From IMG/VR virus record IMGVR_UViG_3300037067_003221, positions 64,001 through 128,000 of that record: a DNA stretch of 64,000 nt; one strand, given 5' to 3'. The notes beneath the pieces were generated by a model. That model was not told where the DNA came from. It did not search any database and worked only from the letters and a program-made list of their open reading frames with translations. The translations under genes and the position numbers were made by a program. This DNA is from a virus (Duplodnaviria; Caudoviricetes). Shown in pieces: positions 3,000-47,982 of this stretch (the stretch's first letter is position 1; every line of letters starts with the position of its first letter).

Positions 3000-4595
3000 T
3001 TAGTTCCTTACAAAGTCTGCCATAACAGCCGGGCAGGCGGCATCAAAGCCGACAACATCCAACATCCCGGCATCATTCGGATCAGCAATAGTGAATCCAG
3101 TCGCCGTGGTCCCGGCCACGATCAACTTGGCGTTAATGCCCATTTTCTGACGGTATTGCGTCAAGGCTTGGCATGGGTGAATATCACCCGACCACGTTTC
3201 ATTATCGGTATAGATAATGAAAGCATCAACTTCAATTTTATTCTCCGCTGCGTACAGCATCGGAAGGGCACAATCAGTGCGGGACATTCTGATCGACTTA
3301 ATCAAGGCAATCACTTCGCTCAATCGAGAGCAACGGTTAATGTCCATCGGACTAATACCCCCGGAAAACGCCGTAACCAGCGTTTGCGGCTCAGTCTTAG
3401 TCGTAACCATCGACATGCAAGCCGACACATCCCTAGCAGAGAGATTCGTATTGGCTACACGCTGGCTACCCATCGAACCCGATACGTCAAGGGCAACCAT
3501 GTGCCGCTTGCCAGTCGGTTCAACTGCATCGAAAGACGCATAAAACGCATCTTCCAATGCCGCCGTAATTTGAGTTACAGGGGTCCAAGTCAATGCACCA
3601 CGGAAACCGTGGCCTTGACGATAGGTGTCTTGTGCAAGCAAGATCGACAACGGATGCACGCGCGCCCGCTTCAAATCTTCCATATTCATTAGGTGTCGGC
3701 ACACCAAATTGGTTGCAGCCGACAGCGGCTTCAATAGCCCGATGCTGGACAACTTGCCGAGATTGCGAATCAAGGCAGTGGGCGGCATGTGGGGCAGCAA
3801 TTCTTCCCAAATGACCGTGCTATTAAGCAACGTATTCGGAACATGCTCGAACGACATTTGATACTTGCGAATTAAATCCGCAGCCTTACGTTCGTCGCCG
3901 GGTCCGAGTTTTTGAATTGCTTCAAACCCTTCAACGATTGCCAAAGGCGAGTTAGCAGGGATGCAAGGAATACTGCCACCCTGAGTCAGATACTTGTATA
4001 GGGCGTTTCGCACATCGCTATTGGTCCGTGGGTGCGACAGCCGCAGCGCATCGCGGTGCGTATAACCTTCACGGTTACGATACTTCGTAACTTGATAGGC
4101 CAGCCGCTCTATTGGCATAACGTCATACCAAGTGGCAACTGCATTACGCAGACCACGGCCCCAACCACGCATTTCCTTACACGCTCCGATGAATTGGAAT
4201 AAGTGCGTCGGAATACGGCACACGGTCGATAGGTGGTGCAGAGCATGGCTACGGGCAACATTGTCGCCGTGACTTGCCACAAGGGCAAGAGCGAAGATTG
4301 CCGCATCGTTCTTAGGTGCCCGGCCAGCCGAACTAATACCGGCAATAGTCTTAACCGTGCGAGACGAATCGACGGCGGCACATTCCAACACGACCTTAGC
4401 ATTATCCACAGTCATCGGGCGTTCGCCAACATAATACGAACCGCCCTCGCATCCGAGAATCAAGAACCGTTCAAGACGGGTCCAAATATCCGTTGCGAAA
4501 ACAAATCCGCCAGCGTTATTTTTGACCTGTTCGCGGCCAAAGATAGCTTGCGATTGCGAAGTTTTGCGAGACGAAACATGCTGTGCGTAACTCAT
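3000..4595 (-). CDS. rsr: Ro60/Rsr RNA-binding protein (TROVE + vWA)
   Basis: QVKNNAGGFVF, RLERFLILGCEGGSYY, KYRNREGYTHRDALRLSHP, ALIRNLGK, vWA MIDAS DVSGSM, TDCALPM, YTDNETW, IADPNDAGMLDVVGFD; true start MSYAQH at 4595 with GGAGAA RBS. Confidence 0.97.
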   Translation of the reverse strand: MSYAQHVSSRKTSQSQAIFGREQVKNNAGGFVFATDIWTRLERFLILGCEGGSYYVGERPMTVDNAKVVLECAAVDSSRTVKTIAGISSAGRAPKNDAAIFALALVASHGDNVARSHALHHLSTVCRIPTHLFQFIGACKEMRGWGRGLRNAVATWYDVMPIERLAYQVTKYRNREGYTHRDALRLSHPRTNSDVRNALYKYLTQGGSIPCIPANSPLAIVEGFEAIQKLGPGDERKAADLIRKYQMSFEHVPNTLLNSTVIWEELLPHMPPTALIRNLGKLSSIGLLKPLSAATNLVCRHLMNMEDLKRARVHPLSILLAQDTYRQGHGFRGALTWTPVTQITAALEDAFYASFDAVEPTGKRHMVALDVSGSMGSQRVANTNLSARDVSACMSMVTTKTEPQTLVTAFSGGISPMDINRCSRLSEVIALIKSIRMSRTDCALPMLYAAENKIEVDAFIIYTDNETWSGDIHPCQALTQYRQKMGINAKLIVAGTTATGFTIADPNDAGMLDVVGFDAACPAVMADFVRN

Positions 4596-4615: not shown

Positions 4616-4679
4616 TTAGGCAAGTTAGTGGAATGGGGTGCTTCAAAACCAAATTGATAACCCATCCCGTTCGGCCCAA
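4616..4679 (-). ncRNA. Mini Y RNA-like element immediately upstream of Ro60
   Basis: RC TTGGGC-C-GA pairs with TT-GCCTAA (bulged-C Ro-binding helix); GGGATGGG/CCCATTCC upper stem followed by TTATC; inner TCAA-TTTGGTT-TTGA hairpin. Confidence 0.8.
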
Positions 4680-4689
4680 ATCACACTCA

Positions 4690-5055
4690 CTACCAGTCCA
4701 TGCGGAACGAACCAAAATTGGTGTCGATCAGCATTTCTTTGAATTGATCTTCGGTCATTGCGGCATCTTCCGGTTCGTCATGGACGAAATTCAAGAAGAA
4801 TACCCAATCATACACTTGATACCGTTCGTAATCATACGGCAAGCAAGCATCAACCCACTCACCAATTTTACCATATTCGCCCTTATGGATAACCCAAGGG
4901 GCTTTCTTCTTATCGCAAAATTGTTTCCAAACTTCAAACCGTTCGGCTAACGGGAGCGACGTATCTGTTACATACTCCCGAAGTGCGGGCTGTACATACT
5001 TATGGTACTTCTCATTGTCTTGCAAGTGCGTAATAATCTCAGTAATTTGACTCAT
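4690..5055 (-). CDS. hypothetical protein inside the Ro60 ncRNA cluster
   Basis: 121-aa ORF with GGAGAA RBS. Confidence 0.7.
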   Translation of the reverse strand: MSQITEIITHLQDNEKYHKYVQPALREYVTDTSLPLAERFEVWKQFCDKKKAPWVIHKGEYGKIGEWVDACLPYDYERYQVYDWVFFLNFVHDEPEDAAMTEDQFKEMLIDTNFGSFRMDW

Positions 5056-5153: not shown

Positions 5154-5155
5154 TT

Positions 5156-5219
5156 TGCGGACTAGGTATGTCGATAGGGGGCATCATTAACAGTGATAAC
5201 CTATCAACCTCGGCCCGCA
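5156..5219 (-). ncRNA. Mini Y RNA-like element 2
   Basis: RC TGCGGGC-CGAG...CTA-GTCCGCA lower stem, GTTGATAGG/CCTATCGAC upper stem, then TTATC; inner ATCA-CTGTTAA-TGAT hairpin. Confidence 0.75.
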
Positions 5220-5225
5220 CAAACA

Positions 5226-5299
5226 GGGATACATTTGGGACTTGCACCCAATCCTACGTATTCTTCTCTACGTCGCTCTACTACTAAGCCAATATATCC
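5226..5299 (-). ncRNA. Degenerate tRNA-like RNA (no valid anticodon loop)
   Basis: RC GGATATAT/ATGTATCC acceptor, D arm, ACGTA-GAGAAGAA-TACGT (8-nt purine loop), TTGGG-TGCAAGT-CCCAA T arm. Confidence 0.65.
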
Positions 5300-5330: not shown

Positions 5331-5463
5331 TGGGCGTGAATGGGACTCGAACCCATACTGTTCCTTTGATAATGGATAACGCTTTACCGTCGGCCCGCGA
5401 TATACTCAGCCGGGCAAAAGGTGGCAAAACGGTTTAACGTGCTGCCATTACACTATCACGCCC
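5331..5463 (-). ncRNA. tRNA scaffold whose anticodon arm is replaced by a permuted Y-RNA (Ro-binding) stem
   Basis: RC GGGCGTGA/TCACGCCC acceptor, GTGT-AATGGC-AGCAC D arm, ATGGG-TTCGAGT-CCCAT T arm; insert AACCGTTTTGCC..TTGCCCG-loop-CGGGC-C-GA-CGGTAAAGCGTTATC. Confidence 0.8.
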
Positions 5464-8023: not shown

Positions 8024-8917
8024 TCATTTCGCCGGAACCTCGCCCATGTGAATCAAGGGAAGCGGGTTCGGGGAACTACCGTCAAGGAAATAAATCTTGG
8101 CGGCGGGGTCTTTGCTCATAGATTGCAACGCCTTCAACGCTTCAAGTTGAATAAACGCAGGGCTACCAGCAATCGCCTTGTTAATCTTTTCAATCTCATA
8201 CGCCTGTGCATCAGCCATCGTTCGCTTACGGGAAGCATCAGCTTCGGCAGACTTCTTTTCAGCCTCGGCCTTTACAACAACTTGCTCCTGTGCAGATCGA
8301 TACCGTTCAAGTTCGGCCTTCTGAGTTTCAACCTCCTGTGACCGCACCTTCTTAGCTTCAATCGCCTTAGTGATGTAGTCGGGCAGTTTCATATCACGAA
8401 TCAAAACGGAAGTAACATCGAGACCCTTGCTATCAAGCCGCTTTTGCAGCCCAATCAACAGTGAATCCTGAATCAACTTTTGTGTAGTATCCAGATAAAA
8501 ATCCTCGCACTTCTTAATACTCTTGCCATTCTCGCGGGCAAGCGAACGTAAGTTAGGAATCAAATGAACGGCCACAAGTTGTTCTTCGTTGCCGGTTTCC
8601 GTCAAAATCTTTGTCGCCAAAGCCTTCTTGACTCGATAGTTGACCGATACATCGACGATAGTGATCTGTTGATCTTCGGTGGGAATGCCAATTGCTTCTT
8701 TCACCGTCTTTTCACGGGCATCGAAGGTAGTCCACGAAAGCAGTGGATTGACAGGGAAGTGCATACCTTCATCGTAAACATCTTGCACCTTGCCAAACAA
8801 GGTCGCAACGGATACTTGACCAACAGGTACAGACTTCATGGAGCAACAGCCGCCAATCAAAACGAACAGGCCCAGAAATCCAGCCAAACACACGCCAACA
8901 ATTTTCTTCACGCTCAT
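8024..8917 (-). CDS. SPFH/prohibitin (band 7) family membrane protein
   Basis: N-terminal TM, VPVGQVSVATLFGKV..EGMHF, VDVSVNYRV, VLIRDMKLPDYITKAIEAK, coiled-coil C-terminus. Confidence 0.92.
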   Translation of the reverse strand: MSVKKIVGVCLAGFLGLFVLIGGCCSMKSVPVGQVSVATLFGKVQDVYDEGMHFPVNPLLSWTTFDAREKTVKEAIGIPTEDQQITIVDVSVNYRVKKALATKILTETGNEEQLVAVHLIPNLRSLARENGKSIKKCEDFYLDTTQKLIQDSLLIGLQKRLDSKGLDVTSVLIRDMKLPDYITKAIEAKKVRSQEVETQKAELERYRSAQEQVVVKAEAEKKSAEADASRKRTMADAQAYEIEKINKAIAGSPAFIQLEALKALQSMSKDPAAKIYFLDGSSPNPLPLIHMGEVPAK

Positions 8918-13008: not shown

Positions 13009-13082
13009 TGGGCCGGGTAGGAATTGAACCTACGCTAACGCGGATTTTCAGTCCGCTGCTCTACCTGCTGAGCTACCGGCCC
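13009..13082 (-). tRNA. tRNA-Phe(GAA)
   Basis: RC GGGCCGG/CCGGCCC-A, GCGGA-CTGAAAA-TCCGC. Confidence 0.95.
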
Positions 13083-13086
13083 GGAG

Positions 13087-13162
13087 TCGGAATAGAGGGA
13101 ATCGAACCCACGGCCTCATGGTCCCAAACCACGCGCTCTGAACCTAGCTGAGCTATATTCCG
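13087..13162 (-). tRNA. tRNA-Pro(TGG)
   Basis: RC CGGAATA/TATTCCG-A, GTGG-TTTGGGA-CCAT. Confidence 0.93.
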
Positions 13163-46023: not shown

Positions 46024-47982
46024 TTAGTCGGATACATTCTCAACATCCTCTACGTTTAAGACTTCTTTGAACGTGCCCATAGACATAAGTTCAAGTCGTC
46101 GGTTATCTCTTAAAACTTCCAGCACTTTCATATCTGTTGGCAGATGAATTAGGTCAACAATAGTTGCTCCCTTATTCACATCCATCCCAATACGATGGAT
46201 ACGATCTTCCGATTGGGTTCGTGATTCCGGGTTGAAATCATTCGACCAATAGACAATCATCCGGGCTTCAACTAAAGTTAAAGCCATACCACCAGATTTA
46301 GGGTGCGCTACAAACACGACTCTTGGATGATTTTCCAAATCAGCCCAGTAATCCAACGGGGCTTCATCTGTACTTGTTCCATCAACACGTTTAACGCTCC
46401 ATCCACGGCCATCAACTTGGACAACATCCCAACCTTGTTTCAAACAAAGTTTAGTGACCTTATCCACACTGCCCGTGAATCCAGAGAATACGACCAATCG
46501 GCCACACTCTTCATTTTCATCGAGCAATTCAATAAGTGCCTGTTCCTTGGGGCATGGCACTTCTTTTACAATCCGTTCAACTTTATCAACTTCCCCCGTT
46601 CCATTGCATGACGCACACGGTAGTTCTTTCTGAATCAAAGTCTTGACATACTCAGGATCGAGCATATCGACCATTGTGAAAGCGCGTTCGTCATCCTCTG
46701 GATCAACCCAATAGGTTGTGGTTGTCTTGCCTTCACAAACCGGGCACGTTTCTTTTCCGACAACTTTATCCCGGTATTGGAACCCGTCACTTAATTCACG
46801 TAGCCATGTTAGGCCGGTGATAGTATTCGGAGCGGATTTTACCAATGACTGCGCCACACGCAGTATTGACGGGTTGGGCTTGCATTCAACAATACGGTAT
46901 CGTTTATCAGGTAGGTCTAAACAATCTTTCTTATGTTTAACAACAACCAGACCTTTCAAACGCTCGTATAAATACGCGACTTCATTTTTGCACGGCTCAA
47001 AATTGTGTACTACTTCCCCTGGGCATGGAATCATGCCTGGGTACGTATGTTGTCCTTCTTCCAACAATTCGCCACAGACATTGCAGCGTTCTTCGGAATC
47101 TCGCCAGCCAACTAACTTCCAGAAAGTATTTCCAATCAGTCCTTCTTCTTTTCGATGGATACCCAATCGGAACTTAAAGGAATCTGCCGTGCCCTCTCGC
47201 AAGAAACCCGGCCAAGCAATTTCCGCTTGTGCCCACCAGTCCACTGGACTCTTGGGGCTGGGTGTTCCTGACATTAGGATAACATAACCTTCATATCCAT
47301 ATTCTGCTCTTACGGCATCGGCCAAGGCTTGAGCAGCTTGCGTTCGTTGAGTCTTAGCAGTTTTTAATCTGCTAGATTCATCGAAGATAACGCCCTCTGG
47401 TGCCGGGTCGCCAGACTTCCAGAATCCCATTCGTTTGACAAGACCTTCATAGGTCATCAATTCAACTTCAATATCGTCTCGAAGATTCCATCGCTTGAAC
47501 TCACGTTCCACCGCATATAAACCTGAACGAGGCGCAACCCACCACCATTTCTTCTTTCCAGACTTCTCCATAACCTCAATGGCTGAGAGGGTCTTTCCGG
47601 TGCCCATTTCAGCACCCCAGATTTGATAGTGATATGTCAACCCTGCATCAGACATATCTTTCTGATGCTGCATCAACGGTCGTGTATATTCAAAATTGAT
47701 TAGGTCACGGTCAAAATGTTCAAATGGATTTAAGCCCATCATTGCTTGTAACTGGAACCAGTTTCGTGTGCAATTTTCAACGGACCAAATCTTACGTGGT
47801 GGGTCGTCGAACCCGTGCCACTTACTGCCCTTCATTGCTTTAATCTCGTCTTTCGATTCAAACGGAGATTTGCGAAATTCGATGCGAGCAGGCGTAATGA
47901 AAATTTGTGCTGGTACTTTGATTCGGGAACCTGCCTTGGTTTCCTTAATCAATTTAATATCAAGTAGTGTATTCAATTCCAT
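46024..47982 (-). CDS. SNF2-like SF2 helicase with Zn-finger insertions
   Basis: EMGTGKT, DESS, SGTP, SGGMALTL, QSEDRIHRIG. Confidence 0.9.
   Translation of the reverse strand: MELNTLLDIKLIKETKAGSRIKVPAQIFITPARIEFRKSPFESKDEIKAMKGSKWHGFDDPPRKIWSVENCTRNWFQLQAMMGLNPFEHFDRDLINFEYTRPLMQHQKDMSDAGLTYHYQIWGAEMGTGKTLSAIEVMEKSGKKKWWWVAPRSGLYAVEREFKRWNLRDDIEVELMTYEGLVKRMGFWKSGDPAPEGVIFDESSRLKTAKTQRTQAAQALADAVRAEYGYEGYVILMSGTPSPKSPVDWWAQAEIAWPGFLREGTADSFKFRLGIHRKEEGLIGNTFWKLVGWRDSEERCNVCGELLEEGQHTYPGMIPCPGEVVHNFEPCKNEVAYLYERLKGLVVVKHKKDCLDLPDKRYRIVECKPNPSILRVAQSLVKSAPNTITGLTWLRELSDGFQYRDKVVGKETCPVCEGKTTTTYWVDPEDDERAFTMVDMLDPEYVKTLIQKELPCASCNGTGEVDKVERIVKEVPCPKEQALIELLDENEECGRLVVFSGFTGSVDKVTKLCLKQGWDVVQVDGRGWSVKRVDGTSTDEAPLDYWADLENHPRVVFVAHPKSGGMALTLVEARMIVYWSNDFNPESRTQSEDRIHRIGMDVNKGATIVDLIHLPTDMKVLEVLRDNRRLELMSMGTFKEVLNVEDVENVSD

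Follow-up and report, generated by a model that had tools for sequence, protein, structure and literature searches.

A tRNA-shaped Y RNA gene near a phage Ro60 gene, with the modules of YrlA in tRNA order

The closest described relatives of the RNA considered here are the tRNA-like Y RNAs called YrlA. The published YrlA runs through a T arm, a closed acceptor stem-loop and a D arm, and has its ends at the Ro60 stem (Chen 2014, PMC4201824; Wang 2018, bioRxiv 10.1101/312249). It has been viewed as a tRNA that is circularly permuted and whose acceptor stem is closed, and an origin from dimeric tRNA transcripts is favoured (Wang 2018). Here we report on a 133-nt RNA gene of a tailed phage, located at positions 5463 to 5331 on the minus strand of the 64,000-nt stretch that was analysed (positions 64,001 to 128,000 of the IMG/VR virus record IMGVR_UViG_3300037067_003221, hereafter the window), in which a Ro60-type helix stands at the place of the anticodon arm of a tRNA. 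On the comparative sequence evidence we consider it, with a probability of roughly 85%, to be the non-coding partner of the phage Ro60, a Y RNA of the tRNA-like (YrlA) class whose modules are arranged in tRNA order.

Several properties of the known RNAs matter for the comparison. The Ro60-binding 5' strand carries the motif GNCGAAN0-1G; dimeric tRNAs are false positives of the YrlA model; few YrlAs were found in delta-proteobacteria and cyanobacteria, and structural variants were expected (Chen 2014). In M. smegmatis, RNase P cleaves YrlA within the acceptor loop; the RNA receives CCA and is found mainly as two base-paired halves (Chen 2014), and it has been speculated that some YrlAs are processed into a more tRNA-like shape (Wang 2018). 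Seen from the RNA 5' end, the T and D arms of Yrn1 from D. radiodurans are oriented differently from those of YrlA (Chen 2014). The paper on the Ro60 of phage phiLo describes only ordinary stem-bulge-stem Y-like RNAs. A tRNA-order gene with a capped Ro60 helix was found described nowhere in the accessible literature, outside which lay Burroughs and Aravind 2016, Sim and Wolin 2018, Sim et al. 2020 and the supplements of Chen 2014; a first reading made from the letters of the window and its open reading frames (ORFs), hereafter the sequence-only reading, had likewise named no description of this topology.

The RNA gene and its parts

Direct reading of the minus strand from 5463 to 5331, the coordinates already proposed by the sequence-only reading, reveals an RNA gene with a tRNA body. 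The Rfam tRNA model (RF00005) matched it over its full length (5462..5332) with 41.0 bits, against a gathering score of 29, and in this alignment 73 nt replace 13 central positions of the anticodon arm, in agreement with the insert of about 75 nt first proposed. ARAGORN called ten ordinary tRNAs in the window and none at 5463..5331. With the family model R1 described below, the whole RNA scored 90.5 bits. With model R2, made from bacterial copies only and therefore without the window RNA, it gave a full-length match of 78.7 bits (E 1e-18), compared with at most 49 bits for the true tRNAs of the window.

The order along the RNA is 5' acceptor strand, D arm, Y 3' strand, loop, Y 5' strand, V hairpin, T arm and 3' acceptor strand. 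The acceptor 5' strand (5456..5463) consists of G-1, at 5463, and positions 1-7 (GGGCGUGA); it pairs at eight of eight positions with the 3' strand and C73 (5339 to 5332, UCACGCC C). C73 lies at 5332 and A74 at 5331; AAC comes next, and no CCA is encoded. By hand reading, U8 and A9 stand between the acceptor 5' strand and the D arm, which in the Rfam alignment spans 5439..5453 (GUGU/AAUGGCA/GCAC). The T arm (5340..5356, AUGGG/UUCGAGU/CCCAU) was placed by the same alignment.

Between these arms lies the Y module. The 3' strand of its upper stem (5423..5431, CGUUUUGCC) makes nine of nine pairs with 5388-5380. It is followed at 5411..5422 by the internal loop ACCUU, the UU and the lower-stem GCCCG, a segment that fits the ...A-CC-AACUU-GACCG consensus of the Rfam sbRNA/Y model, as seen in the alignment of the small Y RNA Y2 discussed below. 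A loop of 13 nt (5398..5410, by hand reading; 15 nt in the model-based count) closes the helix. The Y 5' strand then reads CGGGC, a bulged C, GA, C and GGUAAAGCG, followed by UUAU(C) (5376..5397). The helix so formed consists of an upper stem of 9 bp and a lower stem of 5 bp, with a 5x1 asymmetric internal loop, a G.U/A:U step and a bulged C between them, which is the consensus layout of the nematode sbRNA, a Y RNA homologue, in Rfam. Set against GNCGAAN0-1G, the 5' strand reads GCCGAC-G; the single deviation is the C at the sixth position, a position that varies across the family. The sequence reading and the family fold thus agree with the sequence-only reading on a tRNA body in which the anticodon arm has given way to a loop-closed Y helix whose 3' strand precedes its 5' strand.

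What remains of the anticodon stem is two pairs. They are formed by U27-U28 (5437-5436) with two A's, which together with the small V hairpin (CC AUUAUCAAA GG) occupy 5361..5375; the corresponding helices 3 and 6 covary in the family. The V hairpin stands where YrlA has its V region. A decoding tRNA has a 5-bp anticodon stem and a 7-nt anticodon loop; here 2 bp are left and 73 nt stand instead. Having no anticodon stem-loop, the RNA cannot decode.

In its acceptor 5' strand and D arm (5439-5463, GGGCGUGAUAGUGUAAUGGCAGCAC), the window RNA resembles the tRNA-Trp of the same phage (GGGCGAAUGGUGUAAUGGCUAGCAU), encoded at record positions 46874-46946 (minus strand). The D arm of most relatives is UAGCUCAGNNGGNAGAGC, unlike that of the window RNA.

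A covarying family in phages and bacteria, linked to Ro60

Relatives were collected from a starting set of 55 viral Ro60 loci, to which the Rfam tRNA model was applied; in several of them, "long tRNAs" of 118-126 nt were found beside Ro60. A covariance model, R1, was built from a hand-checked alignment of five sequences. Together with a pattern scan of IMG/VR that made no use of Ro60, it yielded 26 strong viral copies. The 80 bacterial Ro60 loci that were fetched, many of them from Myxococcota, Gemmatimonadota and Planctomycetota, contributed more than 50 further copies, and 47 bacterial copies alone were used for model R2. The family totals 78 copies, spread over 16 viral loci and 45 bacterial Ro60 loci. 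In five loci (L138, L073, L079, L096 and L142), three to four tRNA-order Y RNAs stand in tandem, with different acceptor and upper-stem sequences. Megablast and blastn searches of GenBank phages with the locus and with the RNA gave no match, and none of the five named Ro60 phages (Cashline, Forza, Limpid, Sollertia and BONAISHI) carries the tRNA-order form.

The fold is maintained across these copies. Standard pairs fill 95.0% of the pair cells, and compensatory changes were found in 32 of the 36 pairs; for the 26 viral copies alone, the values are 94.4% and 29 of 36. None of 500 shuffles reached the observed level of pairing, and sliding the partners by 1-3 columns lowered it to 32-47%. RNAalifold, unaided by the model, recovers the acceptor, D and T stems and both Y stems. 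All eight pairs of the acceptor stem covary, with 97.6% of cells paired, and so do all eight model pairs of the Y upper stem; covariation extends to both stems of the Y hairpin. Within the latter, the UU-GCCC block is conserved, GGGCCGA is the commonest word, and UUAU or UUAC comes next in 56 of 78 copies. The capping loop is only 3-8 nt long in 63 of 78 copies and is often GCAA, GAAA, UUCG, CUUG or CUCG, i.e. a tetraloop of the GNRA, UUCG or CUYG type. A loop so short, and so often a stable tetraloop, points to the closed hairpin as the selected state.

The nucleotides of the tRNA core are kept as well. U8, A14, U55 and A58 are present in 78 of 78 copies and C56 in 76; the G18-G19 pair is retained. 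The Levitt pair 15:48 covaries, being G15:C48 in 52 copies and A15:U48 in 16, among them the window RNA. CCA is encoded in nine of the 78 copies. Its absence from the window RNA says nothing, since none of the 14 tRNA genes of the phage encodes CCA.

The sequence-only reading had noticed an extra G:C pair resembling the G-1:C73 identity element of tRNA-His. The pair is present in the window copy; as a family trait it was not supported. The eighth acceptor pair (-1:73) is kept in 65 of 78 copies, as GC in 27, UA in 21, UG in 12, CG in 3 and AU in 2, and is unpaired in the other 13. Because this pair persists but covaries, selection appears to act on an 8-bp stem and not on His identity, and the latter was set aside as a family trait.

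The family is linked to Ro60. In the window, the Ro60 gene (3000..4595, minus strand, ATG at 4595) encodes 531 aa with TROVE (PF05731, 4e-44) and Ro60 vWA (PF25045, 3e-65) domains. It lies 740 nt downstream of the RNA on the same strand, adjacent as the sequence-only reading had it, and well within the distance of about 4 kb to a TROVE gene used for YrlA. Among 19 viral loci compared (L061 and L069, later reclassified, still included), Ro60 was the only protein common to the neighbourhoods, being present in 14, and no other conserved protein neighbour was found. The Ro60-blind pattern scan brought 18 new loci, and in nine of them Ro60 was within the fetched stretch.

Order of the arms compared with YrlA and other RNAs

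In YrlA the order is Y5'-V-T-(closed acceptor loop)-D-Y3', whereas in the window RNA it is acceptor5'-D-Y3'-(loop)-Y5'-V-T-acceptor3'. The opposite connectivity that the sequence-only reading had attributed to canonical YrlA is that of the published descriptions (Chen 2014; Wang 2018). Its term "circularly permuted" for the window RNA, in contrast, calls for a change of wording: the connectivity it described is correct, but the RNA is unpermuted relative to a tRNA, and it is the canonical YrlA that the literature calls permuted.

Connectivity was assigned with a script that takes the seven bases following a Y-linked T arm and searches for their partner followed by a D arm. The partner was found about 100-150 nt upstream, as expected for tRNA order, in the window and in loci L001/2, L005, L006, L011/13/43, L015, L029, L046, L054, L064, L066, L070, L075 and L077. 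It was found 2-18 nt downstream, the published YrlA order, in L003, L004, L007-9, L016, L017, L026, L032, L034-36, L039 and others. Among the bacterial loci, 39 were in tRNA order, nine were canonical and one had both. The bacterial tRNA-order set includes Sorangium cellulosum So ce26 and So0157-2, Minicystis rosea DSM 24000, Kofleriaceae, Gemmatimonadota, Isosphaeraceae and one Brocadia metagenome-assembled genome.

Hits with R1 call for caution, as tandem canonical YrlAs can mimic tRNA order. In Gordonia phage Cashline (L176, MW534378.1), R1 gave 56 bits where two canonical YrlAs, together at positions 2173-2450, meet in tandem, and two loci, L069 and L061, were reclassified as canonical arrays. 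Since such arrays score with R1, family membership was judged by the acceptor-partner test and by scores of roughly 60 bits upwards. The window RNA is not a misparsed array of this kind: its acceptor partner lies upstream, and beside it there is neither a T arm nor a D arm from which a canonical unit could be completed. The Cashline YrlA pair occupies an unannotated gap upstream of gp37, a Ro-like protein, and its acceptor stems are capped by the tetraloops GCGA and UUCG.

The likeness to YrlA extends to nearly every module. Both have a Ro60 neighbour gene, a bulged Ro60-type helix with a GNCGA-type 5' strand, UUAUC, a V hairpin, a T arm, a 7-8 bp acceptor-type stem, a D arm and the tRNA tertiary nucleotides, including the covarying 15:48 pair, and canonical YrlA loci carry near-identical Y5'-UUAUCC-V-T blocks. 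Thus the Ro60 neighbour, the Ro60-type module and the tRNA-like domain of a YrlA are all present, whereas the arm order and the placement of the ends at the Ro60 stem are not; the window RNA instead matches R2 over its full length and pairs its own ends at eight of eight positions. The Rfam YrlA model (RF02553) did not match it at E values up to 10. The best match of that model in the phage, 24.7 bits at window positions 13032-13139 (minus strand), falls on the junction of tRNA-Pro and tRNA-Phe and, given the warning of Chen 2014, was taken as a dimeric-tRNA false positive. As judged from sequence, the RNA is a real and widespread variant of the YrlA class.

Processed M. smegmatis YrlA resembles what the window RNA would be by analogy, a tRNA mimic on Ro60 with a free tRNA-like acceptor end. 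In M. smegmatis, however, the open acceptor is made after transcription, from two paired halves, and the Ro60 stem is open, whereas the window RNA is a single chain in which open acceptor and closed Ro60 helix are encoded as such. Yrn1 shares T-arm and D-like elements and is a Y RNA bound to Ro60, but the stem-loop between its two arms is modelled as the anticodon arm (Chen 2014); we infer that its Ro60 stem stands at the place of the acceptor stem, which leaves no free acceptor end. Metazoan Y RNAs and nematode sbRNAs (RF00019, RF01656) have the same bulged-C helix, G.U/A:U step, asymmetric internal loop and UUAUC; unlike the window RNA, they have no tRNA body and end at the base of the Ro60 helix. 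tmRNA and the tRNA-like structures of plant viruses also combine a free-ended tRNA-like acceptor/T domain with another module in place of the anticodon arm, but they are aminoacylated, act in translation or replication and show no sequence relationship to the window RNA. Finally, b7a-tRNA, a predicted tRNA-like non-coding RNA of RNA-repair loci, is said to occur now and then beside Rsr; as presented by Wang 2018, the only account through which it is compared here, it is a near-authentic tRNA with a Band-7 partner and comes without mention of a Ro60 helix, and some overlap between the two is possible.

Some loci accommodate both connectivities. In the tandem arrays L069, L022/L049, L052 and L112, both canonical and tRNA-order acceptor pairings can be drawn, and these arrays may be intermediates of a switch by duplication and permutation. 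In a quick, unrooted Ro60 tree with two main viral clades, all tRNA-order loci fell within a single one of these, intermingled with canonical loci, and the well-supported branches force at least three switches of connectivity. The arrays suggest that connectivity switches through tandem duplication followed by loss of the outer halves. The tRNA-order form might be the ancestor of YrlA, the canonical form arising from it in that manner, though we hold this to be unlikely.

The locus, the rival readings and a proposed role

The window is the middle part of a 147,030-bp record rated complete. The genes around the RNA are all on the minus strand, in the order two tRNA-Leu, a 117-aa ORF, the tRNA-shaped Y RNA, a pseudo-tRNA, Y2, a DUF7020 ORF, Y1 and Ro60. 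Y2 (5154..5222) and Y1 (4616..4680, GGGCCGAACGGGAUGGGUUAUC ... CCCCAUUCCACUAACUUGCC) are mini Y RNAs of ordinary connectivity with no tRNA domain. Y2, 110 nt further downstream from the tRNA-shaped Y RNA, has a fold z-score of -4.37 and matches the nematode sbRNA model (RF01656) weakly, with 28.2 bits and E 1e-3 against a gathering score of 38. Y1, in the leader of Ro60 about 20 nt upstream of its ATG, folds as the same bulged helix. The locus holds three Ro60-type helices in all, each with a different upper-stem sequence. The DUF7020 ORF (4690-5055, minus strand, 121 aa), inside the Y RNA cluster, was assigned by a weak match (4e-06, 27.6 bits) and is not conserved among related loci.

The pseudo-tRNA (5224..5299, minus strand) forms a cloverleaf with a 7-bp acceptor stem, D and T arms and the T loop UGCAAGU, and has a 5-bp anticodon stem with an 8-nt purine loop (GAGAAGAA). 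It was called neither by ARAGORN nor by Rfam at the gathering score; its scores under R1 and R2 are 29-31 bits. A role as processing signal and mimicry of the b7a-tRNA kind are both conceivable. Upstream of the Ro60/Y RNA cluster, at a distance of 2.6 kb, stands a Band_7/SPFH gene (8024-8917, minus strand; PF01145, 8.5e-24), and Band-7 proteins have been tied to a tRNA-like RNA in RNA-repair loci (Burroughs and Aravind, as relayed by Wang 2018); the window, too, has a Band_7 gene together with a pseudo-tRNA.

Several observations weigh against a tRNA-order Y RNA partner of Ro60. The minimum free energy z-score of the whole RNA, -2.55, is modest relative to shuffles, that of the insert alone is -0.84, and the single-sequence fold mispairs the D arm; as a lone sequence is weak evidence, the case rests on the comparative data. 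The alignments used for the pair counts were fitted to the model structure and favour it. In the window copy, the loop of 13 nt is longer than in most relatives, the sixth motif position departs from the consensus, and the lower helix beneath the bulged C, with its 5 bp, is shorter than in metazoan Y RNAs, so that Ro60 binding is assumed by homology. In a scan of the locus, promoter-like and terminator-like sites were no commoner than in shuffles; a sigma-70-like site matching at 9 of 12 positions ends 13 nt upstream of G-1. Lastly, the viral fragments L070, L074 and L079 carry the RNA and show no Ro60 in the sequence at hand, which says little as they are only 4-42% complete.

One further reading concerns what the free acceptor end does. 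The RNA might be a chargeable tRNA mimic, with histidyl-tRNA synthetase as the enzyme in copies with G-1:C73 such as that of the window. Aminoacylation is speculative, and we hold this to be unlikely. If it were true, the particle could bring Ro60 to EF-Tu, ribosomes or enzymes that use aminoacyl-tRNA, or the phage could use it to mislead or to sense host defences that target tRNAs. The phage tRNA-His(gtg), outside the window at record positions 46799-46872 (minus strand), has a U at -1 opposite C73, hence no encoded G-1.

A second possibility is that the transcript is the precursor of a two-piece or canonical-type YrlA, cut in the Y loop and perhaps joined at the acceptor ends, so that the mature ends would lie at the Ro60 stem. 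The long loops of the window copy (13 or 15 nt), L015 (53 nt) and L109 (27 nt), the two base-paired halves of M. smegmatis YrlA and the arrays that permit both connectivities fit such a scheme. Against it stand the short capping loop, often a stable tetraloop, of 63 of the 78 copies, which argues for a closed hairpin, and the lack of a flanking T or D arm in the window; we judge it quite improbable. No better placed is the proposal that the RNA is a tRNA-like element independent of Ro60, either a processing signal of the RNA cluster or a decoy for host enzymes that target tRNAs, with an incidental Y-like hairpin. The RNA does sit in a run of tRNA-like and Y-like elements that need separation by cutting, and some viral fragments with the RNA have no Ro60 in the sequence at hand. 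However, the hairpin keeps the bulged C, GGGCCGA, the UU opposite GA and UUAUC, both its stems covary, and Ro60 is the sole shared neighbour; a bare processing signal would not need the features of a Y RNA. The weakest candidate, a decoding tRNA gene with an intron or mobile insertion, or a decayed tRNA pseudogene, can draw on the Rfam tRNA score above threshold and the tRNA-His-like G-1:C73 but is very improbable, as removal of the insert leaves a 2-bp anticodon stem and no anticodon loop, no Rfam intron family matches, the insert of 73 nt is far shorter than the group I introns of tRNA genes (200 nt and more) and is conserved with covariation across phyla, and the phage has its own tRNA-His(gtg) elsewhere.

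For the tRNA-order Y RNA that we favour, the following course can be proposed. The RNA would fold into the L shape of a tRNA, with the bulged helix, in place of the anticodon arm, bound on the outer surface of Ro60 as in homologous RNAs. RNase P would cut its 5' end and leave the 8-bp stem, and the 3' end would be trimmed and probably given CCA by the host enzyme, from which the phage's own tRNAs, with no encoded CCA, must likewise receive it; M. smegmatis YrlA is the only precedent for these steps. The exposed tRNA elbow and acceptor end might finally serve to bring a tRNA-binding factor to Ro60 or to gate the protein, as has been suggested for YrlA.

The Rfam tRNA model scores such RNAs above its threshold, and annotation pipelines may therefore report them as odd tRNAs or miss them. 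The tRNA-order form may account for missed Y RNAs in groups such as the delta-proteobacteria and cyanobacteria, where Chen et al. found few YrlAs. A complete tRNA whose anticodon arm is a Ro60 helix and the arrays that allow either connectivity also offer an alternative to the dimeric-tRNA model of how tRNA-like Y RNAs arose, namely duplication and then permutation starting from a single tRNA. The RNA is also a natural, single-chain, predicted ligand of Ro60 with a true tRNA end, for which the use of RNase P, CCA-adding enzyme, synthetases and other tRNA-binding proteins is directly testable.
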